From a virus: DNA of 64,000 nucleotides. The notes beneath the pieces are model-generated. The model made no database searches and was not told the DNA's origin. It saw only the letters and a list, made by a program, of their open reading frames with translations. Positions 5,632-63,676 of this stretch are shown here, piece after piece; within the stretch, counting starts at the first letter, position 1; the number at the start of each line of letters is the position of its first letter. A program made the position numbers and the translations under genes. The stretch lies in IMG/VR virus record IMGVR_UViG_3300025875_000007, positions 1 to 64,000 of that record; one strand, 5' to 3'.

Positions 5632-5659
5632 TTCGCGTACAATACGTGGCCTATAATAG
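5632..5659 (+). promoter_or_regulatory. phage promoter-motif copy (TTCGCG-N14-TATAAT)
   Basis: TTCGCG at 5632-5637, a 14-nt spacer, TATAAT at 5652-5657. It lies upstream of the nuclease/RNAP gene string. Confidence 0.5.
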
Positions 5660-5717
5660 AAGGGGTGAGGGTTTGCTTCTTGTTTTTGCCTGATTTTTCG
5701 ACGAAAGGGAGACTCTA

Positions 5718-6059: not shown

Positions 6060-6558
6060 CTCTTGGGTAAATTACGACGACGAGAAGCTTGATCGTGTTT
6101 ATCTGAGTCGACAGGCTGCAAAGCGTGGTACGGACTTTCACGATCTCGCCCAGCGATGCATCACGCTCAACCAAAGACTTCCTGAGTTCCCAGTTACGAC
6201 TATGGGGCTCTATGTTAACGATGCCATCGGCTTTCGGATGAAGCCTGAGGTTACCCTCTTTTATTCGATTAACGCATTCTGTACAACAGATTGCATTTCG
6301 TTTCGAAAGAACATGCTCCGGATTCACGACCTGAAGATGGGGCTTGGGCACACCTCAGAGCGTCAGCTTGAAGTTTATGCGGCTTACTTCTGTCTCGAGT
6401 ACGGTGTTCGTCCATTCGACATCGAGACCGAACTTCGGATTTATCAGAACAACGAGGCACGGATCTATGAAGCCGATCCTGTGACCATCTCTCTCATTAT
6501 GCAAAAGATCGTTGCGTTCGACAGGCGTATCAATCAGCTTAGGGAGGACTCTGAGTGA
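5998..6558 (+). CDS. PD-(D/E)XK exonuclease (Cas4/RecB-like phage exonuclease)
   Basis: The N-terminal HSFLSASSSSW matches the S(A/P)SSxxRW-type opening of phage exonucleases. IHDLKMG is the D-x-K motif and QLEVYAAY the QhxxY motif. ATG 5998 is the only start upstream of the first motif, which gives a 62-nt overlap. Confidence 0.6.
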   Translation: MRFNDNSKLAGQHSFLSASSSSWVNYDDEKLDRVYLSRQAAKRGTDFHDLAQRCITLNQRLPEFPVTTMGLYVNDAIGFRMKPEVTLFYSINAFCTTDCISFRKNMLRIHDLKMGLGHTSERQLEVYAAYFCLEYGVRPFDIETELRIYQNNEARIYEADPVTISLIMQKIVAFDRRINQLREDSE

Positions 6559-9287
6559 TTTTCCAGTATGAGGATTACATATCGCACTACGGAACTCCTC
6601 GGAAGTCTGGACGATACCCTTGGGGCTCCGGTACGAAAGATGAGAAGATCTATGAGGGAAGTTTTCTAGACATCACGTCTAAGATGGAACGTGATGGCAT
6701 GAAGCCCCTCGAGATCGCAAAAGGGTTCGGTATCACGACGACCCAGCTTCGTGCTCGCAAGACCATCGAGAGCAACGAGCGAAAGAATCAGAAGTTTGCA
6801 GATGTCAAGAAGCTCCATGACAAGCAAATGGGCCCTTCTGCGATTGGTAAGCAGTTAGGTCTTTCTGAGTCTTCTGTTCGCTCTGTGATTGCTTCGATGA
6901 ACAAGGAGCAAAAGGCGAACATCCATACCGTCGCCAAGATTCTTAAAGACGAAGTGGATGAGAAGAAGTACGTTCAGATTGGTACTGGTGTTGAGCATCT
7001 TCCCGTCATGGGCAACATTTCAGCAAACCGTCTGAAGAATGCTGTCGGTATTCTCGAAGAGGATGGCTACACAGTCCATTCTGTACAGGTGGACCAGATT
7101 GGCACTCCTGGACAAAAGACTACCGTTAAGGTTCTTACTCCTCCCGGAACGACGTATCGGGATGTGGACAACAACAAAGAACAAATTCGTCTTCCTGGTA
7201 AGTGGACCGATGATGGTGGCGACACTTTCCACGGTCCCAAGCCTCCTTTGAACATTGACCCTAAGCGGGTTGCGGTTCGATACAAGGAGCAAGGTGGTGA
7301 CGAGGCTGACGGTGTCATCTTTGTTCGTCCTGGCAAAGAAGACATCGCCATTGGCGGAAAGAACTATGCACAGGTTCGTATCGCTGTTGGTGGTACGCAC
7401 TATCTTAAGGGTATGGCCGTTTACAAAGACGACCTGCCTGATGGCGTAGATCTTCTGTTCAATACGAACAAGAGCGATACAGGCAACAAGCTCGACGCCA
7501 TGAAGAAGCAGGAGAAAGATCCGACTACCGCAACAAGGCGGAATCCAGACGGAACGCCCGATTTGGATTCTGCAAAGATTAATGAGACGAATCCCTTCGG
7601 ATCTCAGATTCGTCGGCAGATTCTTGATCTAGAAGGTAAGAAGGCCGTCTCGGCTATGAACCTTCTGGATGAAGAGGGAACTTGGTCTGACTGGAACAAG
7701 TCTCTTTCTTCTCAGGTTCTGTCTAAGCAGTCTCCTGTTCTGGCTAAGCAGCAGCTTGATGTCAAACGTCAGCGTATGAGGGAAGACCTTGACGAGATCA
7801 AGTCTCTGACCAACCCCGTTGTTCGTAAGCACCTTCTTGAGGCCTTTGCTGATGGTGCTGATTCTTCGGCAGTACACCTTGACGCTGCGCACATTCCTCG
7901 TCAGTCAACGCACGTTCTGCTTCCGGTTAAGAGTCTTAAGGCTAGTGAGGTTTACGCACCAAATTACGATGATGGCGAAACGGTTGTTCTGATTCGCTTT
8001 CCTCATGGTGGCAAGTTCGAAATTCCGGAACTCACGGTAAACAACAAGAATCGTGAAGCCATCAAGATGATGGGTAAGCGGCCTCCGGATGCTGTTGGTA
8101 TCAACTCCAAGGTTGCAGAACGACTTTCTGGTGCGGACTTTGATGGGGACACTGTTCTTGTCATTCCGAATAGTCCTAACAACCCTCGTCGTATTCGTAA
8201 CGAGGCAGCACTTAAGTCTTTGCAGGGATTCGATCCTAAGTCATACAAGCTTCCTGATGATGCACCAAAGATGTCTTCGAAGACTAAGGGCATTGAGATG
8301 GGTAAGGTTTCTAACCTTATCACTGACATGACGATTAAGGGTGCCAGCAACGAAGAGCTTGCTCGAGCTGTAAAGCACTCTATGGTAGTCATTGATGCTG
8401 AAAAGCACCATCTCGATTACAACAAGTCTTTTAGAGACCACGCCATTGGGGCTTTGAACGAACGATACATGAATGGGCCTAAGGGTGGAGCTTCGACTCT
8501 GATCTCAAGGGCTACGTCTATGGATCGTGGCGTTGACAAGATGGTTCCTCGTAAGGCATCTGAAGGCGGTCCTATCGATCCTAAGACGGGTCGTAAGATG
8601 CTAGTTCCTGATACCTATCTTACTCGTGATGGTGTTACTATCACTAAGAAGATGGACATTGAAAAGTTAGCGAATACTAATGACGCTTTCTCTTTGGTGT
8701 CTAAGGAACGTACTAAGATCGAGGAAGTTTACGCCGAGCATTCTAATGCTCTTAAAGAGTTTGCTAATGAGGCTCGTAGAGAGGTGTACGCATACAAGCC
8801 TCCTAGAGTAGACCTCAATGCTAAGAAGGTTTATAAGACTGAGGTTGCTAGCCTTGTGTCTAAGCTCAATGTTGCACGAGCTAATAAGCCTTTGGAGAGG
8901 CAGGCTCAACTCTTTGCCAATGCTGTGGTGGCTAAGCAGAAAGAAGCTGATCCCACCATGGATAGGGCTAGGCTTAAGAAGATTGAGGCCCAAGCATTAG
9001 CAACTGCTCGTGCTAGGGTACAGGCTAACAAGCACAAGATTGTACCTACTGATGAAGAGTGGGCCGCCATCCAGGCAAGGGCGGTTACACCTAACCAGCT
9101 TCAGCAGATGCTGTCTAATGCTGACCTAGATGCAGTGCGTACACTTGCTACACCTCGTGCTAGAACGGCTCTATCTCCTGCTAAGATAGCCCGTATCAAT
9201 AGCATGGCTGCACGAGGATTCAATCAGGCTGACATTGCTACTGCTTTGGGCCTATCCCCAGCAGTGGTTAGGGAAGTATTCAACTGA
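6555..9287 (+). CDS. candidate single-subunit two-barrel RNA polymerase (YonO-like) with fused HTH domains
   Basis: aa 279-304, GGTHYLKGMAVYKDDLPDGVDLLFNT, resembles the beta DPBB motif GRHGNKG...DMP..G..DIVLNP. aa 478-537, VLIRFPHGG...AVGINSKVAERLSGADFDGDTVLV, resembles the beta-prime NRAPTLHR...NADFDGDQMAV (ADFDGD at nt 8133-8150). HTH-like segments sit at aa ~50-70, ~92-115 and ~884-906. Confidence 0.6.
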   Translation: MIFQYEDYISHYGTPRKSGRYPWGSGTKDEKIYEGSFLDITSKMERDGMKPLEIAKGFGITTTQLRARKTIESNERKNQKFADVKKLHDKQMGPSAIGKQLGLSESSVRSVIASMNKEQKANIHTVAKILKDEVDEKKYVQIGTGVEHLPVMGNISANRLKNAVGILEEDGYTVHSVQVDQIGTPGQKTTVKVLTPPGTTYRDVDNNKEQIRLPGKWTDDGGDTFHGPKPPLNIDPKRVAVRYKEQGGDEADGVIFVRPGKEDIAIGGKNYAQVRIAVGGTHYLKGMAVYKDDLPDGVDLLFNTNKSDTGNKLDAMKKQEKDPTTATRRNPDGTPDLDSAKINETNPFGSQIRRQILDLEGKKAVSAMNLLDEEGTWSDWNKSLSSQVLSKQSPVLAKQQLDVKRQRMREDLDEIKSLTNPVVRKHLLEAFADGADSSAVHLDAAHIPRQSTHVLLPVKSLKASEVYAPNYDDGETVVLIRFPHGGKFEIPELTVNNKNREAIKMMGKRPPDAVGINSKVAERLSGADFDGDTVLVIPNSPNNPRRIRNEAALKSLQGFDPKSYKLPDDAPKMSSKTKGIEMGKVSNLITDMTIKGASNEELARAVKHSMVVIDAEKHHLDYNKSFRDHAIGALNERYMNGPKGGASTLISRATSMDRGVDKMVPRKASEGGPIDPKTGRKMLVPDTYLTRDGVTITKKMDIEKLANTNDAFSLVSKERTKIEEVYAEHSNALKEFANEARREVYAYKPPRVDLNAKKVYKTEVASLVSKLNVARANKPLERQAQLFANAVVAKQKEADPTMDRARLKKIEAQALATARARVQANKHKIVPTDEEWAAIQARAVTPNQLQQMLSNADLDAVRTLATPRARTALSPAKIARINSMAARGFNQADIATALGLSPAVVREVFN

Positions 9288-21144: not shown

Positions 21145-21147
21145 CGT

Positions 21148-41633: not shown

Positions 41634-41661
41634 GTCGCGATATTTACATCTCCTATAAAGG
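41634..41661 (+). promoter_or_regulatory. promoter-motif copy (GTCGCG-N14-TATAAA)
   Basis: TCGCG at 41635-41639, hexamer at 41654-41659, 29 nt before ATG 41688. Confidence 0.5.
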
Positions 41662-41687
41662 AAGCCCCCCTCTACGTTAGGAGAAAT

Positions 41688-41978
41688 ATGTTCAGCAAGA
41701 AGCCTTGCCCTGAAGAGACGGAGCTTAACACCGAGATCACTCGCGTGCTTGCCGTGCTTGCACGATGTGAGCCCGATTCCGACGAGTACACCAGCGCAGT
41801 CAAGAACCTCGCGACGCTGTACGCGCAGAAGGAGACCCTTCCTGTCACGCGCGTCAGCCCCGACACGTTCTGGACCGTCGTTGCCAACCTCGCCGGACTC
41901 GCTCTCGTCACGCAGTACGAGCGCGCGAACGTCCTCGGTGGTTACGCCATCAAGCTCGTCAGGCAGCTGAAGAACTGA
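41688..41978 (+). CDS. hypothetical protein (96 aa)
   Basis: Track ORF with an AGGAGA RBS. High GC3. Confidence 0.7.
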   Translation: MFSKKPCPEETELNTEITRVLAVLARCEPDSDEYTSAVKNLATLYAQKETLPVTRVSPDTFWTVVANLAGLALVTQYERANVLGGYAIKLVRQLKN

Positions 41979-42007
41979 GCAGTCCCCGCTAGACCCTTCC
42001 GAAGTCG

Positions 42008-42052
42008 GAGGGCACGCGAACCTTAAACAAGTTTGCGTGCCCTCTGATTTTC
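42008..42052 (+). terminator. intrinsic terminator
   Basis: GAGGGCACGC (42008-42017) pairs with GCGTGCCCTC (42035-42044), followed by TGATTTT. Confidence 0.7.
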
Positions 42053-42080
42053 GGTTGAATTACATATCCTCTAATTTTTG

Positions 42081-42108
42081 GTCGCGTGATATTCATCGCC
42101 TATAATGA
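42081..42108 (+). promoter_or_regulatory. promoter-motif copy
   Basis: GTCGCG-N14-TATAAT(42101-42106)-GA. Confidence 0.55.
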
Positions 42109-42137
42109 CCCGACTCCACCAATTCTAAGGAGATCCG

Positions 42138-42371
42138 ATGCACCCGACCCTCAAGGTTCTGGTGGCCATCTTCGTCACCACTCTTGCCAACCACAAGTTC
42201 TACCAGTACAAGCTTTCCATGCTCGACGACCTGCACCGCCAGGCCTCGATCAAGGAGTGCATGGAAGGGTGGACGCGCGGCTTCAAGGATGGTGAGCTGG
42301 AAGGCCGCCGGGCCATGTGGCTCGAACACCTGACCGATCCCAAGGCACCCTGGTACAAGTCCGAGTCCTAA
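42138..42371 (+). CDS. small protein (77 aa), N-terminal TM
   Basis: AAGGAGA RBS and its own motif promoter. Confidence 0.7.
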   Translation: MHPTLKVLVAIFVTTLANHKFYQYKLSMLDDLHRQASIKECMEGWTRGFKDGELEGRRAMWLEHLTDPKAPWYKSES

Positions 42372-42375
42372 GGCC

Positions 42376-42403
42376 GGAGCCCCTCACAAGGGCTCTAGTC
42401 TTT
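42376..42403 (+). terminator. conserved hairpin + TAGTCTTT module
   Basis: GAGCCC/GGGCTC stem, then TAGTCTTT at 42396-42403. Confidence 0.5.
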
Positions 42404-42429
42404 CGCGAGATATTCACGCCCTATAATGA
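42402..42429 (+). promoter_or_regulatory. promoter-motif copy
   Basis: TTCGCG-N14-TATAAT(42422-42427)-GA. Confidence 0.55.
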
Positions 42430-42454
42430 CCAGCCCTCAACCTCAGGAGTTCGC

Positions 42455-42565
42455 ATGAAGCTCAAGACCGTCCTCGTCAACCTCGGCGCCTTCGCCACCG
42501 TGTTCATCGCGGCCACCAAGGCGCTCGAGTACTTCGACAAGAAGAACAAGCTCCGCAACAACTGA
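42455..42565 (+). CDS. 36-aa membrane peptide
   Basis: CAGGAG RBS. MKLKTVLVNLGAFATVFIAATKALEYFDKKNKLRNN. It shares the stop of track ORF 42317..42565. Confidence 0.55.
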   Translation: MKLKTVLVNLGAFATVFIAATKALEYFDKKNKLRNN

Positions 42566-42585
42566 CCCGAGATCCGAGACCTCTG

Positions 42586-42616
42586 AAGTCTATGTAACCC
42601 ATAGGCTTTACGTCTT
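42586..42616 (+). terminator. conserved hairpin module
   Basis: AAGTCTATG/CATAGGCTT 9-bp stem, then TACGTCTT. Confidence 0.5.
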
Positions 42617-42642
42617 CGCGGATATTACACGGACTATAACGA
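42615..42642 (+). promoter_or_regulatory. promoter-motif copy
   Basis: TTCGCG-N14-TATAAC(42635-42640)-GA. Confidence 0.5.
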
Positions 42643-42668
42643 CCCCGCTCACAACATCAGGAGTAGAC

Positions 42669-42821
42669 ATGTTCGACCTGTCGCACCCCAAGTCCGTGAC
42701 CCTCATCGTGACGGTCAACCTCGACCCCGTTCCGGGTACCTTCCACACCCAGGAGAGTGCTCAGGAGGGCGTCCAGGCCATCCTCACCTCGATGATCCCG
42801 CACTACAAGCCCGACGTCTAG
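42669..42821 (+). CDS. 50-aa protein, hypothetical
   Basis: CAGGAG RBS then ATG 42669: MFDLSHPKSVTLIVTVNLDPVPGTFHTQESAQEGVQAILTSMIPHYKPDV. It is below the track cutoff. Confidence 0.5.
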   Translation: MFDLSHPKSVTLIVTVNLDPVPGTFHTQESAQEGVQAILTSMIPHYKPDV

Positions 42822-42854
42822 ATCCACCCGATGCACGCGTAGTCACAGACCTCT

Positions 42855-42879
42855 GAAGCCCTCATGGGTTTTAAGTCTT
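42855..42879 (+). terminator. weak hairpin + TAAGTCTT module
   Basis: GAAGCCC/GGGTTTT pair with wobbles, then AAGTCTT. Confidence 0.35.
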
Positions 42880-42880
42880 A

Positions 42881-42908
42881 TTCGCGAGAAAAACAAGCCC
42901 TATAATGA
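42881..42908 (+). promoter_or_regulatory. promoter-motif copy
   Basis: TTCGCG-N14-TATAAT(42901-42906)-GA. Confidence 0.55.
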
Positions 42909-42939
42909 CCCAACCACTACAACTGTTAGGAGCCCCACC

Positions 42940-43200
42940 GTGGACCTCAGCAGCAGCGTGATCATGCCTCGAGAAGACTTCATCGAGCTCACGACATGCG
43001 CCTTCAACCAGCCCCCCACGTCGCCCGCCGAGCGCGTCGCCGTCACCCTGCAGACCACCATCATCTTCGCAGGGATCGCCGCCGCCTTCAGCGGTGCCAC
43101 GTACGTCTGGTACCGGCTCATGTCGAAGCTCGAGTCGGAGAAGACCGAGAACGAGATCACCGTCATCGACGCCCGCGCCAACAGCTACAAGCAGCAGTAG
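42940..43200 (+). CDS. small membrane protein (86 aa)
   Basis: GTG after TAGGAG. TM VAVTLQTTIIFAGIAAAFSGATYVWY. Confidence 0.65.
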   Translation: MDLSSSVIMPREDFIELTTCAFNQPPTSPAERVAVTLQTTIIFAGIAAAFSGATYVWYRLMSKLESEKTENEITVIDARANSYKQQ

Positions 43201-43215
43201 ATCAGTCAAGACCCC

Positions 43216-43249
43216 GAGTCTATGCCCACCAGCATAGGCTCTAGGTCTT
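43216..43249 (+). terminator. conserved hairpin + TAGGTCTT module (repeat family copy A)
   Basis: GAGTCTATGC/GCATAGGCTC 10-bp stem. Confidence 0.55.
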
Positions 43250-43266
43250 CAAAATAGGAGTGTTTT

Positions 43267-43440
43267 ATGGCTGCATCCTTCGTCGATCCTAAACTTGATG
43301 AGTTCATAAAGTTCTTAGAAAGCCTTTCGGAAATTCCCCTGTCTCCTTGGCAAAAAGAGCTTGCAAAGGTGGTTTTAAGCGGTAAGAAGTTCCGCATCGT
43401 CCAAGGTCGCAAGGGATCGTACATCGTGACAGACGCGTAA
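43267..43440 (+). CDS. 57-aa protein, hypothetical (AT-richer insert, no motif promoter)
   Basis: TAGGAG RBS. MAASFVDPKLDEFIKFLESLSEIPLSPWQKELAKVVLSGKKFRIVQGRKGSYIVTDA. Confidence 0.45.
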   Translation: MAASFVDPKLDEFIKFLESLSEIPLSPWQKELAKVVLSGKKFRIVQGRKGSYIVTDA

Positions 43441-43459
43441 CTTTCACGCCCTATAGTGA
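43432..43459 (+). promoter_or_regulatory. promoter-motif copy (ACGCG variant)
   Basis: ACGCG(43433-43437)-N14-TATAGT(43452-43457)-GA. Confidence 0.45.
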
Positions 43460-43494
43460 AAGACCCATCGCCATCCCGACAGAAAGAAGTCGTC

Positions 43495-43719
43495 ATGACC
43501 ATGTTCGCCAAGCTCATCACCGAAGCCACCATCGAGGAGATCACCGAGACCAACGACGGTGTGCGCCCCGCCGACGAGACCCTGAACAACAACACGTTCT
43601 ACGTCTACCCGGACGCGCACACCGACGCCCACGCGGAGATCCTCACCCGAGCCGCCTTCGGCAAGAAGTACGCCTGGCACGACGTCAACTCGACCGACAA
43701 CATCGTCGTCCCGCGCTAG
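43495..43719 (+). CDS. small acidic protein (74 aa)
   Basis: ATG 43495 within track ORF 43456... AGAAAGAAG lies upstream. Confidence 0.6.
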   Translation: MTMFAKLITEATIEEITETNDGVRPADETLNNNTFYVYPDAHTDAHAEILTRAAFGKKYAWHDVNSTDNIVVPR

Positions 43720-43732
43720 TCCTTCACCAAGG

Positions 43733-43760
43733 CTAGGCCCCCTCCAGGGGCTTTAGTCTT
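43733..43760 (+). terminator. conserved hairpin + TTAGTCTTT (part of an exact 48-nt repeat)
   Basis: GCCCC/GGGGC stem. Positions 43721-43768 are identical to 44038-44085. Confidence 0.5.
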
Positions 43761-43762
43761 TG

Positions 43763-43790
43763 CTCGCGCAAAAGACATGGACCCTAATGA
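43763..43790 (+). promoter_or_regulatory. promoter-motif copy (degenerate hexamer CCTAAT)
   Basis: CTCGCG-N14-CCTAAT-GA. Confidence 0.4.
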
Positions 43791-43815
43791 AGGACCCCGA
43801 CCCAGAAGGAGAGAC

Positions 43816-44034
43816 ATGTCCAAGCAATTCAAGCGTTCCGACGCCTGCACCAAGCTCATCGAGTCCATCTACATGATCAGCTCCGGACCAGACATCACGC
43901 CCCCAGACCTCAACCGAGGCTTCCTGGAGGCGCTGACCTGCTTCGCCGCGACCATGAGTGGCCACACGAGCGTCATCGCAGGCACCGACAGCGACGGAGA
44001 AGTCGAAGACTTCATGTTCATCTTCCGCAACTAG
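43816..44034 (+). CDS. small protein (72 aa)
   Basis: GAAGGAGAGA RBS then ATG 43816 within track ORF 43777... Confidence 0.6.
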   Translation: MSKQFKRSDACTKLIESIYMISSGPDITPPDLNRGFLEALTCFAATMSGHTSVIAGTDSDGEVEDFMFIFRN

Positions 44035-44049
44035 CACCCTTCACCAAGG

Positions 44050-44077
44050 CTAGGCCCCCTCCAGGGGCTTTAGTCTT
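44050..44077 (+). terminator. conserved hairpin + TTAGTCTTT (second copy of the 48-nt repeat)
   Basis: Identical to the copy at 43733-43760. Confidence 0.5.
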
Positions 44078-44079
44078 TG

Positions 44080-44107
44080 CTCGCGTTATATTCATCTCCT
44101 ATAGTGA
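44080..44107 (+). promoter_or_regulatory. promoter-motif copy
   Basis: CTCGCG-N14-TATAGT(44100-44105)-GA. Confidence 0.55.
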
Positions 44108-44135
44108 AGACCCCCTACCCCATCAAGGAGATCCC

Positions 44136-44372
44136 ATGCACGGACCCTACGGCTTCGAGAAGACCACCCGCACGGTGGCCGACCTCCAGGAGGACGACCG
44201 ATTTTACATCGGTGGACTCATGTACAAGGTCCTCGGCGACCCGCTCACCAATTCGGTGAACGGCGAAGTCCAGGTCCGCATGTACCCCGTGTTCGTCGAC
44301 TTCCTCCCGGACATCACCGTCATGACCCTTCCCGGCCGGAACCCGATCGAGATCCACAACCAGCCCGCGTAG
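44136..44372 (+). CDS. small protein (78 aa)
   Basis: AAGGAGA RBS. Track ORF. Confidence 0.7.
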   Translation: MHGPYGFEKTTRTVADLQEDDRFYIGGLMYKVLGDPLTNSVNGEVQVRMYPVFVDFLPDITVMTLPGRNPIEIHNQPA

Positions 44373-44384
44373 ACCCTTCGAAGG

Positions 44385-44417
44385 CTAGAGCCCCCATCAC
44401 CATGGGCTTTAGTCTTT
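44385..44417 (+). terminator. conserved hairpin + TTAGTCTTT module
   Basis: AGCCC...GGGCT stem, then TTAGTCTTT ending at 44417. Confidence 0.45.
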
Positions 44418-44456
44418 GCAAATCTAAAAAATTCCCGGGGGAGGTTTTCAGTCAAA

Positions 44457-44484
44457 GTCGCGTAAAAAACACGCACTATAATGA
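44457..44484 (+). promoter_or_regulatory. promoter-motif copy
   Basis: GTCGCG-N14-TATAAT(44477-44482)-GA. Confidence 0.55.
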
Positions 44485-44511
44485 CCCGACCCATCTGATT
44501 GGAGAGCCCCC

Positions 44512-44730
44512 ATGCTCAACAAGCTCAAGAAGTCCAACCGGTACCAGTACACCTGTCCCGACGTCATCCACTACCGCAAGAACCAGTACCGGCTCGCGAT
44601 CTACTCCAACGTGTTCGCAGTCGCTACCCAGGTCCTCTTCTGGGGTGGCCTCGTCGCGATGAGCAAGCGCCTGGACCCGAAGCCGACCCTCAAGCCCGTG
44701 GAGCCCCTCAGCCCCTCCGACGCCAGCTAG
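44512..44730 (+). CDS. small membrane protein (72 aa)
   Basis: GGAGAG RBS. TM IYSNVFAVATQVLFWGGLVAM. Confidence 0.7.
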   Translation: MLNKLKKSNRYQYTCPDVIHYRKNQYRLAIYSNVFAVATQVLFWGGLVAMSKRLDPKPTLKPVEPLSPSDAS

Positions 44731-44745
44731 TCCCGTCAAGACCCC

Positions 44746-44779
44746 GAGTCTATGCCCACAAGCATAGGCTCTAGGTCTT
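44746..44779 (+). terminator. conserved hairpin + TAGGTCTT (repeat family copy B)
   Basis: The 35-nt core 44745-44779 is identical to 45953-45987 and differs by 1 nt from 43215-43249. Confidence 0.55.
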
Positions 44780-44787
44780 ACTGAAAT

Positions 44788-44815
44788 ATCGCGACATATA
44801 CATATCCTATAGTGA
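44788..44815 (+). promoter_or_regulatory. promoter-motif copy
   Basis: ATCGCG-N14-TATAGT(44808-44813)-GA. Confidence 0.55.
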
Positions 44816-44843
44816 ACGTCCATCTCTCACGAAGGAGTTTTAT

Positions 44844-44948
44844 ATGCCACGACTCATTCAGTACGTCCTCTGGACTTGGTTCTCGTGCATCCTCATGTAC
44901 GGCGGAACCATCCTGTTCGTCTTTGCGCTCGTCAGCATCATGACCTAG
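44844..44948 (+). CDS. 34-aa membrane peptide
   Basis: GAAGGAG RBS. MPRLIQYVLWTWFSCILMYGGTILFVFALVSIMT. Confidence 0.5.
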   Translation: MPRLIQYVLWTWFSCILMYGGTILFVFALVSIMT

Positions 44949-44974
44949 CTTCTACAGATCTAGTTCAAGGCTAC

Positions 44975-44998
44975 AGCCCTACACGGGCTTTAGTCTTT
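44975..44998 (+). terminator. conserved hairpin + TTAGTCTTT module
   Basis: AGCCC-TACAC-GGGCT, then TTAGTCTTT. Confidence 0.45.
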
Positions 44999-45003
44999 CG
45001 CAA

Positions 45004-45076
45004 GGGCCTATAGCTCAATTGGCAGAGCAGCGGACTTTTAATCCGCGGGTTCAGGGTTCGAGTCCCTGTGGGCCCA
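45004..45076 (+). tRNA. tRNA-Lys (anticodon UUU)
   Basis: Cloverleaf folded by hand. Acceptor GGGCCTA/TGGGCCC, D-arm AGCTCAATTGGCAGAGC, anticodon arm GCGGA-CTTTTAA-TCCGC, T-arm CAGGG-TTCGAGT-CCCTG. Confidence 0.85.
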
Positions 45077-45144
45077 CTCGCAAGGGGAGTCGTCACTAAG
45101 ATTTACCAACATGCAGTCCCCCATGATATTCTGCATGTTGGCTG

Positions 45145-45217
45145 GTCCTCATCGTCCAGTGGCCTAGGACTCCACCCTTTCAAGGTGGCTACGCGGGTTC
45201 GAATCCCGTTGAGGGCA
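45145..45217 (+). tRNA. tRNA-Glu (anticodon UUC)
   Basis: Acceptor GTCCTCA/TGAGGGC, D-arm GTCC-AGTGGCCTA-GGAC, anticodon arm CCACC-CTTTCAA-GGTGG, T-arm GCGGG-TTCGAAT-CCCGT. Confidence 0.85.
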
Positions 45218-45250
45218 CGATACATACCAACCAAAATAGGAGCGATAATT

Positions 45251-45445
45251 ATGGTTCAGATGGTTATTCAGAGGATTTCTGATAAGAAGTTTGCTTCGCT
45301 GCGCGGTTTCATGAACCACATAACGGACGCCGAATTCTTCGACGACGAAGTACATGCATTGGAAGTCATGCAAGACTACACGAAGAGCGGTACTCCATGC
45401 GAGTTGCTTTACGTCACAATCACCATGTCAAACGTAAAGGGCTAG
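45251..45445 (+). CDS. hypothetical protein (64 aa)
   Basis: TAGGAG RBS then ATG 45251. The upstream part of track ORF 45068.. overlaps both tRNAs and is rejected. Confidence 0.55.
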   Translation: MVQMVIQRISDKKFASLRGFMNHITDAEFFDDEVHALEVMQDYTKSGTPCELLYVTITMSNVKG

Positions 45446-45449
45446 TCTC

Positions 45450-45599
45450 ATGGAATCGGTTCAAATTGTAGTCACAAGACTAACGCCATCGCCAGGAGTA
45501 ACGCTTTACTCCATTCAAAACGCAGACGGTAAGGTGACGCAGGCGGAAGCGGTGGCTATACTTCGGGCAGCTGCTGATGATATGGAAAGTCGTAAATAG
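45450..45599 (+). CDS. hypothetical protein (49 aa)
   Basis: ATG 45450: MESVQIVVTRLTPSPGVTLYSIQNADGKVTQAEAVAILRAAADDMESRK. Confidence 0.4.
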   Translation: MESVQIVVTRLTPSPGVTLYSIQNADGKVTQAEAVAILRAAADDMESRK

Positions 45600-45604
45600 G
45601 ATCA

Positions 45605-45632
45605 CTCGCGAAAAAAACACGCCCTATAACGA
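45605..45632 (+). promoter_or_regulatory. promoter-motif copy
   Basis: CTCGCG-N14-TATAAC(45625-45630)-GA. Confidence 0.5.
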
Positions 45633-45661
45633 CCCTGTTCATCCGACAGATTGGAAATGTC

Positions 45662-45925
45662 ATGACCGACACCTCCGTCACCCCCACCACCGTCCCCACC
45701 GTCCCCCCGTCCCCGACGAGCGTCCCCGTGCCGCCCGCCGAGACCGAGACGGTCGCCAAGGTCGCCGGCGTCCTCGTGCGCGCGAAGGGTGGAGCCTCCA
45801 AGCTCCTCACCCGCTTCGCCGTGCCCGTCGCCACCGGTGCCCTGACCGGCCTCCTCGTCAACGCCAAGCGCAACCGCTCGGAGAACGAGGACGACGACGT
45901 GGTGGTCGACGAGTCGAACGACTAG
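45662..45925 (+). CDS. Pro/Thr-rich small protein (87 aa) with one hydrophobic segment
   Basis: Track ORF. High GC3. Confidence 0.65.
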   Translation: MTDTSVTPTTVPTVPPSPTSVPVPPAETETVAKVAGVLVRAKGGASKLLTRFAVPVATGALTGLLVNAKRNRSENEDDDVVVDESND

Positions 45926-45953
45926 TCCCATCCGCCTCAACAGATCAGGCCTC

Positions 45954-45988
45954 GAGTCTATGCCCACAAGCATAGGCTCTAGGTCTTT
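45954..45988 (+). terminator. conserved hairpin + TAGGTCTTT (repeat family copy C)
   Basis: GAGTCTATGC/GCATAGGCTC stem. Confidence 0.55.
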
Positions 45989-45991
45989 CTG

Positions 45992-46019
45992 TTCGCGATA
46001 TTTACATCGCCCATAGTGA
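45992..46019 (+). promoter_or_regulatory. promoter-motif copy
   Basis: TTCGCG-N14-CATAGT(46012-46017)-GA. Confidence 0.5.
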
Positions 46020-46140
46020 AGAAATATCCCTTACTATGGAGTGTAAGATGAGATCACTGTGTTATGTCAATAGCACCCCCGGAAGCCCTGACAAGCGGAC
46101 AAATTGTGAAACTTCTTTCCCTTTTATTTTTGGAGGAAAC

Positions 46141-46341
46141 ATGACACACGAGTATCGAGCGGCCGGAAGCATCGACCTCATGCCCCCCGCAACACTCGAA
46201 GATGTTGAAGCGTTCTGTAGAGAAGCTCGAAAGCTTGGTGTCTCTGAGAAGTCACCACTACACACAACCCGACAAGGACTAGTCGGTCCGATTGTAGGTT
46301 GGTATTTCTCAGTTCCTGTAGTACCGGCAGCTCCGCAGTAG
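46141..46341 (+). CDS. hypothetical protein (66 aa)
   Basis: TGGAGGAAAC RBS then ATG 46141. The upstream part of track ORF 46036.. is AT-rich and lacks an RBS. Confidence 0.55.
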   Translation: MTHEYRAAGSIDLMPPATLEDVEAFCREARKLGVSEKSPLHTTRQGLVGPIVGWYFSVPVVPAAPQ

Positions 46342-46369
46342 TTCGCGTAAAATACACATCCCATAGTAG
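46342..46369 (+). promoter_or_regulatory. promoter-motif copy
   Basis: TTCGCG-N14-CATAGT(46362-46367)-AG. Confidence 0.5.
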
Positions 46370-46493
46370 AGGAGTCCTGAAAAGGATCCGAGACACTAAT
46401 GTGTAGGTGAAAACCCTACCCGGAGTGGTAGCCATTAAAGATAAGGCTACTTAACGGACTGTTTTAGTTGGACAGTCACCTCCTCTATTTTTT
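46368..46493 (+). ncRNA. ~125-nt structured RNA / leader closed by a long-range stem and a U-run
   Basis: AGAGGAG (46368-46374) pairs with CTCCTCT (46480-46486), followed by ATTTTTT. Internal hairpins: GTAGCC/GGCTAC and GACTGT/ACAGTC. There is no credible ORF. Confidence 0.45.
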
Positions 46494-46515
46494 CGCCTCA
46501 ATTTAAGGGAGCTCG

Positions 46516-46719
46516 ATGGATGCACTTGCTCTAACAATCATGCAATTTTTGGACAGCGTCATTATCGTCGCTGTACTAGCGTTTGTTGTCTGGCTGGTTC
46601 TTAGCCTGACCCCGAAGCCTCGTCCCGTCTCGGGGCAAACATATCTCTACATCAAGCCGTCAGACGACGACTTCTTCGACATGATTACGGAGTTCCGCAA
46701 TGACATCCCTGGTAAGTAG
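46516..46719 (+). CDS. small membrane protein (67 aa)
   Basis: AAGGGAG RBS. TM VIIVAVLAFVVWLVLSL. Confidence 0.65.
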   Translation: MDALALTIMQFLDSVIIVAVLAFVVWLVLSLTPKPRPVSGQTYLYIKPSDDDFFDMITEFRNDIPGK

Positions 46720-47482
46720 GTTCAAGGCAATCGAGAAGCTGGCGATCGACAACTCGCCCGTTCTTCTGACCGCAATCGGTGTGGCCGGTGTCATCGGCAC
46801 TGCAATCCTGACCCACCGTGCGGCGCTCAAAACGCACCGCGTGCTCCTCGAGGTCGAGGACAACCAGCTCGCAAACAAGGAGCCATTCACGCCTCTGACT
46901 CCGAAGGAGAAGGTGAAGGCGACCTGGACGCACTACATCCCCCCGGTCGTCTCAGGCACAGCCACCATCACCGCCATCGTGCTGGCCAACCACATCAGTA
47001 CGAAGCGTGCGGCAGCCCTTGCTGTTGCGTGCACGATCTCGGAGAAGGCGTACACCGAGTACCGCGACAAGGTCGTAGAGCGATTCGGTGAAAAGGAAGA
47101 GAACCAGATCCGAAACGGTATCGCACAGGACCGGATCGATAAGGCGCCGCCCACCGAGGGCAACGTGCTCATGGTTTCTGGCGGTGATCACCTCTTCATG
47201 GAGATGTACACCGGCCGGTACTTCCGAAGCGATATCGAGACGATTCGTCGAGCCGAGAATCAGCTCAACCACAAGCTCAACACAAACGGCTACGCCACCG
47301 TGTCTGATTTCTATGACATGATCGGCCTTGCGCACACCGCCATCTCTGATGAGATTGGTTGGAACAGCGACAAGCTGATGGCTGTGGACTACCAGGCCAT
47401 CCTGAGCGAGGATGGTCAGCCGTGCGTTGCGATCAACTTCGTCACGGGTCCGGTCCGCGACTACACTCGGTTTCACGGCTAA
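46700..47482 (+). CDS. conserved phage protein with an N-terminal TM (paralog of 51245..52141)
   Basis: SPVLLTAIGVAGVIGTAILTHRAALKTH opening. C-terminal GYATVSDFYDMIGL...IGW pattern. Confidence 0.65.
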   Translation: MTSLVSRFKAIEKLAIDNSPVLLTAIGVAGVIGTAILTHRAALKTHRVLLEVEDNQLANKEPFTPLTPKEKVKATWTHYIPPVVSGTATITAIVLANHISTKRAAALAVACTISEKAYTEYRDKVVERFGEKEENQIRNGIAQDRIDKAPPTEGNVLMVSGGDHLFMEMYTGRYFRSDIETIRRAENQLNHKLNTNGYATVSDFYDMIGLAHTAISDEIGWNSDKLMAVDYQAILSEDGQPCVAINFVTGPVRDYTRFHG

Positions 47483-47534
47483 GGAACACTTCAAGCAGCT
47501 GCGCATATTCGAGCGAGGAAACGTAGTAGGCGAG

Positions 47535-47648
47535 ATGTGCGTTACTGAGGAGTGTCCTTCCTGCGGATCACGAGAGTCACGATACGCAGAGAACGATCTC
47601 ATGCAATGTGAGTACTGCCCGGCGATATTCCCGAAGCAGTTTCTGTAG
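47535..47648 (+). CDS. zinc-ribbon peptide (37 aa)
   Basis: MCVTEECPSCGSRESRYAENDLMQCEYCPAIFPKQFL has CxxC...CxxC. ATG 47535 within track ORF 47412... Confidence 0.45.
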   Translation: MCVTEECPSCGSRESRYAENDLMQCEYCPAIFPKQFL

Positions 47649-47735
47649 TACAAGGGGGTACGGCCTTAAGCGGCGTACTTAAACGACACTACTTTGTTGT
47701 GCGCCCCTCACAACCATCTCTTTAAGGAGACAAAT

Positions 47736-47924
47736 ATGCAGCCCAGCCTGTTCACCTACCAGACCTCGATCGACGAGCCGCCGCACCCCGACCCCAACGT
47801 TGTGGCACGCCTCGTGGAGGCGGAGCTGAGCGACTGCGAGTTCGGCTGCAAGATCTACCAGGACACCCGTAACTCGAACGTCCGTATCCTCGTCCACAGC
47901 GCGGTCTACGGCTGCCGCAAGTAG
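47736..47924 (+). CDS. small protein (62 aa), tandem paralog 1
   Basis: AAGGAGA RBS. LFTYQTSIDEPPHPDPNVVARLVEAELSDCEFGCKIYQD. Confidence 0.6.
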   Translation: MQPSLFTYQTSIDEPPHPDPNVVARLVEAELSDCEFGCKIYQDTRNSNVRILVHSAVYGCRK

Positions 47925-47934
47925 GAGTCTAATT

Positions 47935-48117
47935 ATGTCGGACAAGCTGTTTACGTACACGATCAGACAAGACCAGCTCGACAAGCACCCGGATCAGGCG
48001 GTTGTCAAGCGCTTGGTAGAAGCGTCTGCAAGTGACTGCACGGACGCCTGCAAGATCTACAAGGACCCTCAGACCACTTTGCGATTGCTGGTACACCGAT
48101 GCCCCCCAGCCGACTAA
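47935..48117 (+). CDS. small protein (60 aa), tandem paralog 2
   Basis: LFTYTIRQDQLDKHPDQAVVKRLVEASASDCTDACKIYKD aligns with the preceding gene. Confidence 0.6.
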   Translation: MSDKLFTYTIRQDQLDKHPDQAVVKRLVEASASDCTDACKIYKDPQTTLRLLVHRCPPAD

Positions 48118-48317
48118 CGCCCAGAAGCATTGCTGTAACATGCCGTAGATGCGGTAAATTCAAAAGGCGCGAGACAACAGTGCTCGATCGATACAATAAT
48201 CGATACTGCTTGGATTGCGCCATTGCCGTTGAACTGTGTGAGCTTTGCGGATCTACGAATCTCGACGACATATCCATGTACGGCCAACTCCACTACGACG
48301 ATTGGTGCTTAAAATAA
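48099..48317 (+). CDS. Cys-rich zinc-finger-like protein (72 aa)
   Basis: CRRCG...CLDC...CELCG give three CxxC pairs. Confidence 0.55.
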   Translation: MPPSRLTPRSIAVTCRRCGKFKRRETTVLDRYNNRYCLDCAIAVELCELCGSTNLDDISMYGQLHYDDWCLK

Positions 48318-48484
48318 TGCACAAGTTCATCAACGAGGTCCAGAAGGGCAACGTCATCATCGACGGCAGCAACCGTACTACGGTCTACAAGGTCGAGCCC
48401 TGCCCGTCTTCCAAGGGCACCAAGACTCACATCAACGGCAAGGACTGCTGGGAGAACTTCTCCGAAGTCCGAGTCCAGGACTAA
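48317..48484 (+). CDS. hypothetical protein (55 aa)
   Basis: The ATG overlaps the upstream TAA. It lies within track ORF 48245... Confidence 0.45.
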   Translation: MHKFINEVQKGNVIIDGSNRTTVYKVEPCPSSKGTKTHINGKDCWENFSEVRVQD

Positions 48485-48519
48485 TCCAGTTCCACATCCA
48501 AATTTTGAAGGAGCTAAAT

Positions 48520-48831
48520 ATGGCAACCAAAGAAGAAATCGACATCTTCACGCGAGTCAGCCAAAGGATCGAGCAGCAGGACGCTAGCCCCAGCGATTTT
48601 GCGAAGCGCGCCTATATTCGGGAGCTCAACGAGGGGCTCTACGAGATTGCTCTGTATGGACCGTTCTCGGATGAAGAGGTCGGCGGGCTCCTTAACGACG
48701 CCTTCGCTGACGCCATGGCGAGCGGAGGCGCAGACATCGAGGAAGTTCGTCTCACGGACGAAGACGCCTCCAAGCACTACATCAACCCACGCGAGTTCTG
48801 GATGAGACAGCTCGCAACACTTACGGAGTGA
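48520..48831 (+). CDS. hypothetical acidic protein (103 aa)
   Basis: GAAGGAG RBS then ATG 48520. Confidence 0.6.
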   Translation: MATKEEIDIFTRVSQRIEQQDASPSDFAKRAYIRELNEGLYEIALYGPFSDEEVGGLLNDAFADAMASGGADIEEVRLTDEDASKHYINPREFWMRQLATLTE

Positions 48832-48832
48832 A

Positions 48833-49438
48833 ATGATCACGAAGACCATCACGTTCGAGGACTTCAACGGTAAGACTCTTACCGAGGAGTTCTGCTTCCA
48901 CCTCTCTGAGGACAAGGTCATTGAGATGGAGCTGAGCAAGAAGGGCGGTCTTACTGAGTACATCAAGCGGATCGTTGCCGAGGAGGACGGTGAGAAGCTG
49001 GTTGCCATCTTCAAGGACCTCCTGACAAAGACCGTCGGTAAGAAGTCTCCGGATGGTCGTAAGTTCATCCAAAACCAGGAGATCACTGACGACTTCGTTC
49101 AGACCCCTGCATATTCCAAGCTCTTTGTTGAACTGTCTACGGATGCGGGCCAGGCTGCGGCATTCATCAACGGTGTTGTTCCCGCTTCGATGCAGGCGGA
49201 GATCAAGAAGAAGCAGCAGGCTGTTACTGATCTTCCGTCTGTCGAGGGTGCTGTTGCGCTCGCGCAGGATGCTCAGGCGTCTACCCCGCTCTCGCAGCAG
49301 GACGAGTTCGAGGAGAAGATGAAGGACCCGGATTGGGTTCCGACACAGAAGGACCTACAGAACATGTCTCCGGCACAGATCGCAGCCGCCTTCCAACGCA
49401 AGCAGGCTCAGACCGAGCGAGCTCAGAGCACTCCGTAG
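48833..49438 (+). CDS. conserved phage protein (201 aa), function unknown
   Basis: Track ORF, tightly coupled to the upstream gene. Confidence 0.65.
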   Translation: MITKTITFEDFNGKTLTEEFCFHLSEDKVIEMELSKKGGLTEYIKRIVAEEDGEKLVAIFKDLLTKTVGKKSPDGRKFIQNQEITDDFVQTPAYSKLFVELSTDAGQAAAFINGVVPASMQAEIKKKQQAVTDLPSVEGAVALAQDAQASTPLSQQDEFEEKMKDPDWVPTQKDLQNMSPAQIAAAFQRKQAQTERAQSTP

Positions 49439-49466
49439 TTCGCGTAAAATACACGGGCCATAGTGA
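49439..49466 (+). promoter_or_regulatory. promoter-motif copy
   Basis: TTCGCG-N14-CATAGT(49459-49464)-GA, starting 1 nt after the upstream stop. Confidence 0.5.
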
Positions 49467-49562
49467 GACCACTCAAAAGCCCGAAAGGGATTCATAGGAG
49501 CAATACCTCTAAAGCGCGAAAGCGAATCACAGGAGCAATACCTACGTGGTCTCTATTTTTTT
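49465..49562 (+). ncRNA. ~100-nt structured RNA with two 35-nt-period direct repeats, closed by an 8-bp stem + U7
   Basis: GAGACCAC (49465-49472) pairs with GTGGTCTC (49546-49553), then TATTTTTTT. Repeat units at 49476-49508 and 49511-49543 each hold a GAAA-tetraloop hairpin plus AGGAGCAATACCT. One base pair covaries between units (CCC/GGG vs CGC/GCG). Confidence 0.55.
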
Positions 49563-49598
49563 CGACCCCTCCCACACCCACTAGTTAGGAATCCAATT

Positions 49599-49958: not shown

Positions 49959-49985
49959 CAGGCTAGACATTCGGAAGAGGCACCA

Positions 49986-62809: not shown

Positions 62810-62883
62810 GGGCCCTTGGCCCAAATGGCAGAGGCAGGGGCCTTAAAAGCCCCGAGTTATGGGTTCAAGTCCCATAGGGCCCA
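62810..62883 (+). tRNA. tRNA with anticodon UAA (Leu by anticodon) but a short 5-nt variable loop
   Basis: Acceptor GGGCCCT/AGGGCCC, anticodon arm GGGGC-CTTAAAA-GCCCC, variable loop GAGTT, T-arm ATGGG-TTCAAGT-CCCAT, discriminator A. The D-stem has one mismatch. Confidence 0.7.
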
Positions 62884-63532: not shown

Positions 63533-63560
63533 TTCGCGAAAAAAACATGCGCTATGATGA
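63533..63560 (+). promoter_or_regulatory. promoter-motif copy
   Basis: TTCGCG-N14-TATGAT(63553-63558)-GA, starting 1 nt after the upstream stop. Confidence 0.5.
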
Positions 63561-63676
63561 GACCCCGTGTCGTCGCCGCCCAAATGTAAATTCAGGTGGA
63601 CATCCGATGGCACGGGGTCTCATCCAAGCCTTATGTTGCTTTCCGTTGATTAATTTCCGGACGAGACATAGGCTTT
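63559..63676 (+). ncRNA. structured 5' leader (two long hairpins) upstream of 63720
   Basis: The 11-bp stem GAGACCCCGTG (63559-63569) / CACGGGGTCTC (63611-63621) begins right after the hexamer. A second hairpin, GCCT(T)ATG...CATAGGC, lies at ~63626-63676. Confidence 0.4.

Follow-up and report, generated by a model that had tools for sequence, protein, structure and literature searches.

Stems at copies of a repeated motif

The DNA considered here is a stretch of 64,000 nucleotides (nt) from a virus (IMG/VR record IMGVR_UViG_3300025875_000007, positions 1 to 64,000; hereafter the window), and our subject is a repeated promoter-like motif within it, four copies of which (A to D) lead into an RNA element closed by a stem. 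The window holds 15 copies of the motif, TCGCG-N14-hexamer, where the hexamer resembles TATAAT; all lie on the + strand, as do elements A to D, the gene behind A and the polymerase gene, and 12 of them fall within a region of small genes at 41.6-46.4 kb. Copy A (TAGTTCGCG-N14-CATAGT, 46339..46367) has the stop codon of the upstream gene embedded in it (46339-46341), and its hexamer, read from the sequence as CATAGT at 46362-46367, is followed by the arm AGAGGAG (46368..46374), which starts on the first base after the hexamer, the predicted 5' end of the RNA. This arm pairs with CTCCTCT at 46480-46486 in a closing helix that we call P1, and its 3' arm together with the A and U-run that follow (ATTTTTT, 46487-46493) looks like a terminator. 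Between the two arms lies a conserved multi-helix RNA (the cargo, 46375..46479) that matches no Rfam family and contains hairpins at 46375-46386, 46428-46450 and 46457-46477 and a core, GAGACACUAAUGUGUAGGUGA, at 46390-46410. The first gene after element A encodes a putative membrane protein of 67 amino acids (46516..46719); it has no promoter motif of its own and would therefore need readthrough of P1 and its U-run. A conserved phrog_2152 gene (46700-47482) comes next.

Copy B (TTCGCG-N14-CATAGT, 49439..49464, hexamer at 49459-49464) is followed by element B (49465..49562), in which the closing helix joins GAGACCAC (49465-49472) to GTGGTCTC (49546-49553); TATTTTTTT follows the right arm, and the tail sequence of the element is UAUUUUUUU. 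Inside the closing helix are two copies of a GAAA-tetraloop hairpin plus AGGAGCAAUACCU, and the cargo at 49479-49545 is a tandem duplication of a GNRA (GAAA) tetraloop hairpin plus AUAGGAGCAAUACCU or ACAGGAGCAAUACCU. A search of IMG/VR for homologues of element B with the repeated AGGAGCAATACC returned unrelated coding repeats only. The same two-module layout, with a different sequence, is seen at position 2394 of L013, one of the related phage loci discussed below. Copy C (TTCGCG-N14-TATGAT, 63533..63558, hexamer at 63553-63558) precedes a 22-base-pair (bp) hairpin that begins at the base adjoining the hexamer and lacks a U-run (element C, 63559..63621; arms GAGACCCCGTG at 63559-63569 and CACGGGGTCTC at 63611-63621). 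The stem can be extended by 3 bp into the hexamer (GAT/ATC, 63556-63624), and element C is probably a stabilising hairpin at the 5' end of a 5' untranslated region. Copy D (5632..5657) lies upstream of an endonuclease-exonuclease-RNA polymerase operon, and element D (5658..5687) is a compact, weak hairpin of AGAAG (5658-5662) and CTTCT (5676-5680) with the U-run TGTTTTT (5681-5687); four closer relatives (polymerase identity 65-87%) retain it, with pairing that is partly through G-U. About 45 nt past copy D we also find a perfect 16-bp hairpin (5703-5745, GAAAGGGAGACTCTAA...TTAGAGTCTCCCTTTC) that covers the Shine-Dalgarno (SD) sequence and ATG of the endonuclease open reading frame (ORF) at 5718-6059 and is kept in the relative L113. 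The other eleven copies of the motif (41635..46017; TCGCG starting at 41635, 42082, 42403, 42616, 42882, 43764, 44081, 44458, 44789, 45606 and 45993, with the hexamer ending 24 nt later) have an SD sequence and start codon about 25 nt after each and no long-range stem.

The first-pass annotation of the window had reported that at A, B and C the 5' arm begins on the base right after the hexamer. This observation is confirmed: hexamers, arms and tails at A, B, C and D lie exactly where they were placed, a U-run follows the right arm at A and B and is absent at C, and the stems fold better than shuffled sequences (energies of -42.9, -26.5 and -41.9 kcal/mol and z-scores of -3.9, -3.1 and -8.2 for A, B and C, respectively). 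Element D had been proposed as a weaker fourth case, and its arms and tail were located as described, but its fold is weak and not significant (z = -0.2). A perfect 7-nt complement within 170 nt is present at three of the 15 copies in the window, a number reached by 0.04% of shuffles (P ~4e-4), and deletion of the first 7 nt in silico abolishes the closing stems of A and B. Regarded as intrinsic terminators, A and B have a stem with an immediate U-run, D has a weak version of this and C does not have it. The stems of A and B are not compact hairpins, enclosing 105 and 73 nt of folded RNA, respectively, and a standard terminator scan does not report them. The genes beyond A, B and D have no motif of their own. 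Element A separates the early block of small genes from the replication module, B lies within the start of this module, and D stands before an operon that runs across the probable genome end (9.6-10.0 kb) into the structural genes.

The consensus of the motif is (TAGTCTTT)-TCGCR-N2-W4-ACA-N4-C-TATAAT-GA, with conservation that spans TCGCR to +4, where +1 is the first base after the hexamer. Across 115 copies, each position of the hexamer agrees with the consensus in at least 90%, and position 5 is always A or G. All 115 have a purine at +1 and at +2, and T is absent from +1 to +5; at +5 to +9 the purine share is only 34-46%, so that these positions are mostly pyrimidine. A -35/-10 scan found a TTGACA-like hexamer at 16-18 bp in none of the 13 copies at 41500-50000, nor is the TGn of an extended -10 element present (T 25% and G 19% at those positions); TCGCR sits 14 bp upstream. 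The motif is organised like a T7-type promoter, in that it is long, present in many co-directional copies and has a TATA element that abuts a conserved, purine-rich predicted start. No match to an exact 19-mer of the motif was found in IMG/VR. We note some further features of individual copies. A hairpin and a conserved TAGTCTT(T) are found just before TCGCG at 42395-42402, 42874-42881, 43754-43763 and 44071-44080, and TAGT is fused straight to TCGCG at copies A, B and D; the conserved promoter may therefore span 35 bp or more, or promoters of two classes may exist. At three early copies, bases before or in the hexamer form a perfect 7-nt complement to the SD region of the downstream gene (41649/41678, 44094/44126 and 46011/46033, with a further pair at 45997/46022; for example ATCTCCT/AGGAGAT). 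Such pairing would sequester the ribosome-binding site only in readthrough RNA that holds the promoter sequence.

Element A and related RNAs in other phages

Element A is a real, conserved, structured RNA of ~120 nt (46368-46486). In the Gordonia DJ phages, an unannotated gap contains homologues of the A promoter and of the first half of its RNA, with a second promoter following the element, and the conserved core (GAGACAYNAATGNGNNGGTGA) led to further homologues in IMG/VR. Almost all of these share one order: hexamer, purine-rich arm from +1, core, complementary arm, and A plus U-run, and the 5' arms include GAGAGG, GAGAAG, GAAGAG, GAGAGAG, GAGAAGAG and GAGACCC. The first-pass annotation had taken the differing arms of A, B and C for covariation across loci; these three elements are non-homologous, so that the difference between them is not covariation in the strict sense, and the argument is invalid in that form. 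Folding of homologues with RNAalifold, which it had also proposed, does reveal true covariation among the homologues of element A, and the pairing is kept in relatives. For six type-I homologues in an unbiased MAFFT alignment, RNAalifold gave 35 pairs, 16 of which show compensatory double changes; 97.6% of cells are paired in this alignment, compared with 40-48% when the partners are slid, and none of 500 shuffles is as good. For P1, pairing is complete (100%) across 15 homologues, and 8 of its 10 positions show compensatory changes. The alignment of these 15 was made by hand, N-padded and fitted to the structure, and therefore leans towards it; it was used since MAFFT misaligned the 5' arms of type-II elements. 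The outermost pair of P1 in these 15 is GC in eleven, AU in three and GU in one. A terminator lies directly upstream of the promoter in 8 of the 15, and readthrough RNA is therefore not the main carrier of the left arm.

In a comparison with Rfam 15 only tRNAs reach the gathering score, and there is no credible match for A, B or C at E <= 10; matches of element C to miRNAs and to F6 were rejected, as they merely reflect its long hairpin. A riboswitch-type antiterminator fold was not found for element A, although it was not looked for systematically; a core and covariation are present.

The position of the arm relative to the hexamer was assessed in 109 credible motif copies, which comprise those of the window and those of related phage loci that we fetched (designated by L-numbers), by scanning for a 6-mer with a perfect complement 10-170 nt downstream and then a U-rich tail. 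Such 6-mers occur at offsets -3 to +8 from the hexamer, with a peak at +1 (9 copies), and at offsets +9 to +31 there are none save in one copy, at +21/+22. The negative offsets arise because the AAT of the hexamer pairs with the A and U-run. We considered whether P1 extends into the hexamer and rejected this, as the hexamer/tail pairs never covary and as the A after the 3' arm is also present where it is unable to pair (L007 and L014-11124). Folding yields at least ten different cargo RNAs, each closed by a stem that runs from +1/+2 to the U-run (L013 at 922, 1439, 2071 and 2394, L016 at 2613, L019 at 10097, L027 at 2935 and 3278, L014 at 11124, L003 at 5312, and element B of the window). At L003 5312, which corresponds in position to B of the window, GAGACC/GGUCUC is retained and the cargo is different. 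L007 2262, in the position of element A, has lost the cargo but still has P1, a small hairpin and the U-run immediately behind the hexamer.

Some relatives carry arrays of units made up of promoter, P1 5' arm, cargo, P1 3' arm and U-run, either in tandem or among small genes (L013 880-2700, L027 2935-3400 and L014 11124-11410). The elements at L013 1439 and L027 3278 are homologues that differ by 7 nt in length and show compensatory changes, and they therefore constitute a second non-coding RNA family. Also in L013, at ~1360-1470 and ~1975-2100, paralogous small ORFs (…HKTIYILGTTIVIAGFTYLIVRE… and …HKTIYIVGGVAVFTCLIVRR…) span the promoter motif, which would here double as coding sequence for a transmembrane segment.

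The same architecture extends to the Lactococcus phage 1706 (33% GC), in which the motif reads ttCGCAtgTTTTACAyayrCTATAGT and then, directly past the hexamer, AGAAAGAAGG, in about 12-14 copies. AGAAAG stands directly after the hexamer in the 1706 consensus, and individual copies include one with a compact stem and U-run like those of D (46468) and one that is followed by AGAGGAG (35720). It is also present in IMG/VR loci of 38-54% GC and in phages of Gordonia and Arthrobacter. In phage 1706 (L029, 31090-31165) a leader of ~23 nt separates one motif copy from a putative tRNA-like sequence.

The phage polymerase and the reading of the motif

The window encodes a single-polypeptide two-barrel RNA polymerase (QDE-1/YonO-like) of 910 amino acids, with a helix-turn-helix (HTH) domain at each of its N and C termini (6555..9287). 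The ORF matches PHROG 4291 ('RdRP', E = 0); the sequence GADFDGD, which is the catalytic DxDGD loop, is found at residues 526-532 and is invariant in 61 homologues, and weak matches to PF05183 fall at this site in 10 of 10 proteins scanned. An AlphaFold2 model (pLDDT 81.4) gave QDE-1 (E = 9e-9) and plant RDR2 as the best Foldseek matches in the PDB, followed by the largest subunits of multisubunit (cellular) RNA polymerases, and the product as modelled has the double-psi beta-barrel polymerase fold. Sequence searches of the PDB with the polymerase, both single-sequence and profile, returned HTH matches only. At the terminal HTHs, Sigma70_r4 and Sigma70_r4_2 score above Pfam cut-offs in many homologues; the polymerase of the window itself scores only for generic HTH families (HTH_23 and HTH_38, at residues ~86-114 and ~871-905). 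It is possible that each HTH domain reads one block of the bipartite motif, that is, the TCGCR block or the hexamer. No T7-type RNA polymerase domain was detected in the ten largest ORFs (all of at least 431 amino acids), and the two-barrel protein is the only polymerase-like protein that we found. Homologues of the polymerase are present in 250 phage records, from phages of Arthrobacter, Gordonia, Streptomyces, Curtobacterium, Rhodococcus and Microbacterium as well as Lactococcus phages 1706, P078 and P162, Faecalibacterium phages and human-gut siphoviruses, and in at least 600 IMG/VR stretches, of which the loci listed are the best 80 of about 600. Polymerase activity has been predicted for the family by HHpred in a preprint (10.1101/842583). 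The promoter is conserved across host phyla and travels with a conserved phage polymerase, and it is therefore most simply explained as the promoter of that polymerase.

The sequences show that the stems exist, covary and keep a constant place next to the hexamer, and they show how the motif is built and which fold the polymerase has; from this we infer the start site, the polymerase that reads the motif, termination at P1 and its U-run, and a gating role. We consider it moderately probable that the motif is a phage-polymerase promoter whose transcripts begin where the hexamer ends, or no more than 1-2 nt from there, and that the stems clamp the ends of the RNA and act as terminators or gates. 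The motif would be read by the phage's own two-barrel polymerase, probably delivered with the virion, which would start on the conserved purine right after the TATAAT-like hexamer, or within 1-2 nt of it, and not ~7 nt downstream. Copies of the leader type would give rise to a short leader of ~25 nt that carries the SD sequence. At copies of the stem type, the first 5-10 bases of the RNA, which are purine-rich (GAGAGG, GAGACC, AGAGGAG), would pair with the pyrimidine-rich stretch before the U-run, such that P1 would clamp together both ends of a structured RNA 30-130 nt in length and, with the U-run, would form an intrinsic-type terminator. The outcome would be a discrete small RNA with protected ends, plus a gate. 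We read A, B and D as candidate gates because the genes behind them have no motif of their own, and readthrough would set the timing or level of downstream expression; C, with no U-run, would act as a 5' stabilising hairpin only.

This bears on the interpretation that the first-pass annotation had given to the stems, which is partly supported. That the RNA begins at or next to the end of the hexamer, and not ~7 nt downstream, now has comparative evidence in its favour, although the start is still predicted from sequence. This core idea is strengthened because P1 covaries up to the first base after the hexamer, because the arms are confined to the vicinity of the hexamer and because +1 and +2 are always purine; it is strengthened further because there is neither a -35 element nor TGn and because the phage encodes its own two-barrel RNA polymerase. 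The boundary of P1 at +1, the purines at +1 and +2 and the pyrimidines at +5 to +9 together argue against a start 6-8 nt past the hexamer. The annotation had also reasoned that a start ~7 nt downstream would leave the left arms out of the RNA; the closing stems of A and B do require these bases, but readthrough RNA in the window would hold the left arms as well.

Several observations weigh against a start by the phage polymerase at the end of the hexamer. TATAAT is the textbook -10 element of σ70/SigA, and SigA promoters of Actinobacteria often lack a -35 element and favour G after the hexamer. Indeed, genome notes on the Gordonia DJ phages interpret the motif as a σ70 -10 promoter (PMC9671010, PMC10868162). 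In three loci (L008, L018 and L023) the arm starts later, at +3 to +6, and the motif copies are not all independent, some being from closely related phages. Copies A-D each lie right against the stop codon of the preceding gene, and no terminator intervenes, so within the window readthrough RNA could also form the stems. The polymerase gene is at the far right end of the genome and the motif drives the early region, and the proposal therefore needs delivery of the enzyme with the virion. A single GenBank annotation points to such packaging of the polymerase; in it, orf75 of phage 1706, a homologue of the polymerase, is labelled 'structural protein'. YonO transcribes one late operon from a single promoter and not from a multi-copy early promoter (PMC5467207), and in the literature that we searched we found no paper on promoters of the family or on mapped transcript 5' ends.

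The strongest of the rival explanations, though in our judgement an unlikely one, is that the motif is a host SigA promoter with a start ~7 nt past the hexamer, so that its own RNA would lack the left arm and the stem would stop incoming transcripts only, as an insulator; the promoter would in effect lie within a terminator. The canonical TATAAT hexamer, published as a -10 element (PMC9671010), fits this explanation, as do the length of most arms (5-8 nt from +1, which would fall within the discriminator window), the readthrough RNA that the lack of upstream terminators at A-D allows in the window, and the loss of the closing stems of A and B once the first 7 nt are removed. However, 8 of the 15 homologues of element A already have a terminator directly upstream, and in the tandem arrays of L013, L014 and L027 every transcript would stop at the terminator of the next unit. 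Moreover, arms reach beyond +7 in B (8 nt), L013-2394 (10 nt), L008 (+5 to +12) and C (22 bp), P1 covaries with the cargo, whose conserved junction it closes, the bases at +5 to +9 are pyrimidine-rich and those at +1/+2 invariant purines, and no -35 element or TGn is found, the Lactococcus phage included. The motif does resemble a σ70/SigA -10 element in its perfect TATAAT and in the G directly after it, which is seen in some actinobacterial promoters; it is unlike one in the absence of TGn or of a -35 element at 16-18 bp, in a hexamer, +1 and +2 that are nearly invariant, in its distribution over hosts of two phyla, and in RNA stems that require the bases directly after the hexamer.

It is improbable that the stems are instead processing or stability signals in a polycistronic RNA, of the RNase III type known from the T7 early region, or terminators that overlap the next promoter. 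The genes are all co-directional, the motif copies of the window abut upstream genes, and C is a near-perfect 22-bp hairpin that can be extended by 3 bp into the hexamer; yet P1 of A and B has merely 7-8 bp and is followed by U-runs, a helix of 7-8 bp is too short for RNase III, many homologues have upstream terminators, and the sharp boundary at the end of the hexamer in ~20 independent elements would go unexplained. We think it more improbable still that the true -10-like element is the A/T-rich block after TCGCR, with a start a few bases before TATAAT such that TATAAT and the left arm would both be transcribed. This block reads TAAAAT, TAAAAT and TACAAT in A, B and D, a pyrimidine-purine step lies within the conserved ACA and bases of the hexamer can pair with the A and U-run, but other copies have a degenerate block (GGGAAT, CTAATT, AAAAAA, ATATTT), in many cases without the A2 or T6 of a -10 element, whereas TATAAT is conserved to at least 90% at every position, and the A after the 3' arm also occurs where pairing with the hexamer is impossible (L007, L014-11124). 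Finally, the virion RNA polymerase of phage N4 recognises hairpins in DNA, and the first-pass annotation had already named the alternative that the stems act at the DNA level. That the inverted repeats act in this way, as a cruciform or hairpin, as in N4 virion-polymerase promoters, or as an origin, or that they are due to chance, strikes us as very improbable: the offset scan and shuffles exclude chance, the G-U pairs that are kept would be C-A mismatches on the opposite strand, left arms are purine-rich and right arms pyrimidine-rich, the arms lie 40-110 nt apart, the U-run is on the + strand only, and the cargo has GNRA loops and RNA-type covariation.

A phage-polymerase promoter of this kind would share features with several known systems. 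Like the promoters of T7, T3 and SP6, the motif is a long contiguous conserved sequence in many co-directional copies with a TATA element that would abut +1; the initial transcribed sequence is purine-rich in T7 (GGGAGA), in SP6 (GAAGAG) and here (GAGAGG, GAGACC, GAAGAG), and, as in the 5' stem-loop of T7 phi10, the first transcribed bases would form a 5'-terminal stem. The version of the motif in phage 1706 contains the 9-mer ACACTATAG, which we take to be shared with the SP6 promoter. The polymerase, however, belongs not to the Pol A type but to the two-barrel, QDE-1/YonO-like enzymes and has HTH domains, an additional block of the motif, TCGCR, lies ~20 bp upstream of the hexamer, and the start is a predicted one; the T7-like situation envisaged by the first-pass annotation thus stands for the geometry of the promoter and fails for the enzyme. 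YonO of SPbeta, the non-virion polymerases of AR9 and phiKZ, gp66 of crAss-like phages and gp96/gp64 of P23-45 are, like the polymerase described here, phage relatives of cellular RNA polymerase with a DxDGD loop, their promoters lack a -35 element and lie near the start, and several of these enzymes are delivered with the virion. The AR9 promoter is A(-11)ACA(-8)-6N-T(-1)R(+1) (PMC5449584), and in our motif an ACA stands 5 bp before the hexamer; an AR9-style register (AACA-6N-TR) was tried, and the spacing is not exact, so that we regard this as a loose analogy only. Unlike these enzymes, the present family has HTHs at both ends and is found in siphoviruses of 40-110 kb from Actinobacteria and Firmicutes, and, unlike YonO with its single late promoter (PMC5467207), it has a candidate multi-copy motif.

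The gates proposed for A, B and D recall the PR'-6S RNA-tR' region of bacteriophage λ, the site of Q antitermination, in which a strong promoter gives a short terminated RNA and later genes need readthrough. In phage HK022, structured promoter-proximal RNA (put) acts on the polymerase. In contrast to λ and HK022, we identified no Q- or N-like factor or antiterminator structure, the terminator helix encloses a structured RNA, and gating would not be universal, the DJ phages having a second promoter after the element. Element A is also similar to riboswitch attenuators in its covarying multi-helix core, its invariant loop and junction bases, its closure by P1 and its U-run before a gene. It differs from them in that it has no Rfam match or known ligand and in that P1 would itself be the terminator stem and begins at the predicted +1.

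We put forward more tentatively, as a possibility, the broader idea that the motif is the unrecognised promoter of a widespread, HTH-fused and virion-delivered polymerase family, with a start after the hexamer, that supports early and middle transcription free of the host polymerase and produces end-clamped RNAs, among them a riboswitch-like terminator that gates the transition from early to replication genes. Relative to the literature searched, the link between motif and polymerase, the geometry of the start site, the end-clamped RNA design and the element A RNA family are new; the occurrence of the motif in DJ phages, as a σ70 -10 element (PMC9671010, PMC10868162), and the predicted polymerase-like gene (10.1101/842583) were already known. 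If correct, this idea would assign a concrete promoter and a concrete start site to a large, uncharacterised family of phage RNA polymerases that has so far been recognised through sequence comparison alone. The enzyme is a minimal relative of cellular RNA polymerase that contains DNA-binding domains of its own, σ-region-4-like in homologues. The idea would also overturn the published host σ70 reading of the motif in SEA-PHAGES genomes. It would also define several new families of phage non-coding RNA, one of them conserved across dozens of phages, and the design rule (promoter, 5' arm, cargo, 3' arm, U-run) could serve as an orthogonal cassette for expression or small RNAs in Gram-positive hosts. 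Experiments are straightforward, as there are relatives in culture from Gordonia, Arthrobacter, Streptomyces and Lactococcus.

Genome context and other features

The window belongs to a siphovirus, with a terminase (18824-20590), a portal protein and a tape-measure protein of 1644 amino acids, and all of its genes are co-directional. The terminase protein is ~85% identical to those of Streptomyces phages and Gordonia DJ phages. A megablast search against phage genomes returned tRNA matches only and no close relative at the DNA level. An identical polymerase is present on an 86.8-kb ENA contig. Beyond the polymerase operon lies a non-coding gap of 419 nt (9583-10003) that contains two long palindromes (~9633-9675 and ~9680-9755) and runs of G and C (~9805-9850); this gap is probably the genome end (cos) region, with the window circularly permuted relative to the virion DNA. 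In L112, a 53-kb contig whose polymerase is 72% identical, bacterial-type genes follow the polymerase operon (13500-22682; Epimerase_2, PhoU_div, PHO4, TadE, VanY/SLT, MaoC, cupredoxin and enoyl-CoA hydratase), and the junction could be that of a prophage, a chimeric assembly or the edge of a set of auxiliary genes. Near-identical repeats of ~45 nt (GTTAAGGCTCGCGAGTACTACCTTCGTACTCG.AAGCT.AAGGG), at 22557-22600 and 23224-23267, lie near the 5' ends of the adjacent ORFs 22503-23129 and 23170-23637, which suggests a duplicated N-terminal module in the head-assembly region. Lastly, the phage carries three tRNA genes, for Lys-UUU (45004-45077), Glu-UUC (45145-45218) and Leu-UAA (62810-62884).

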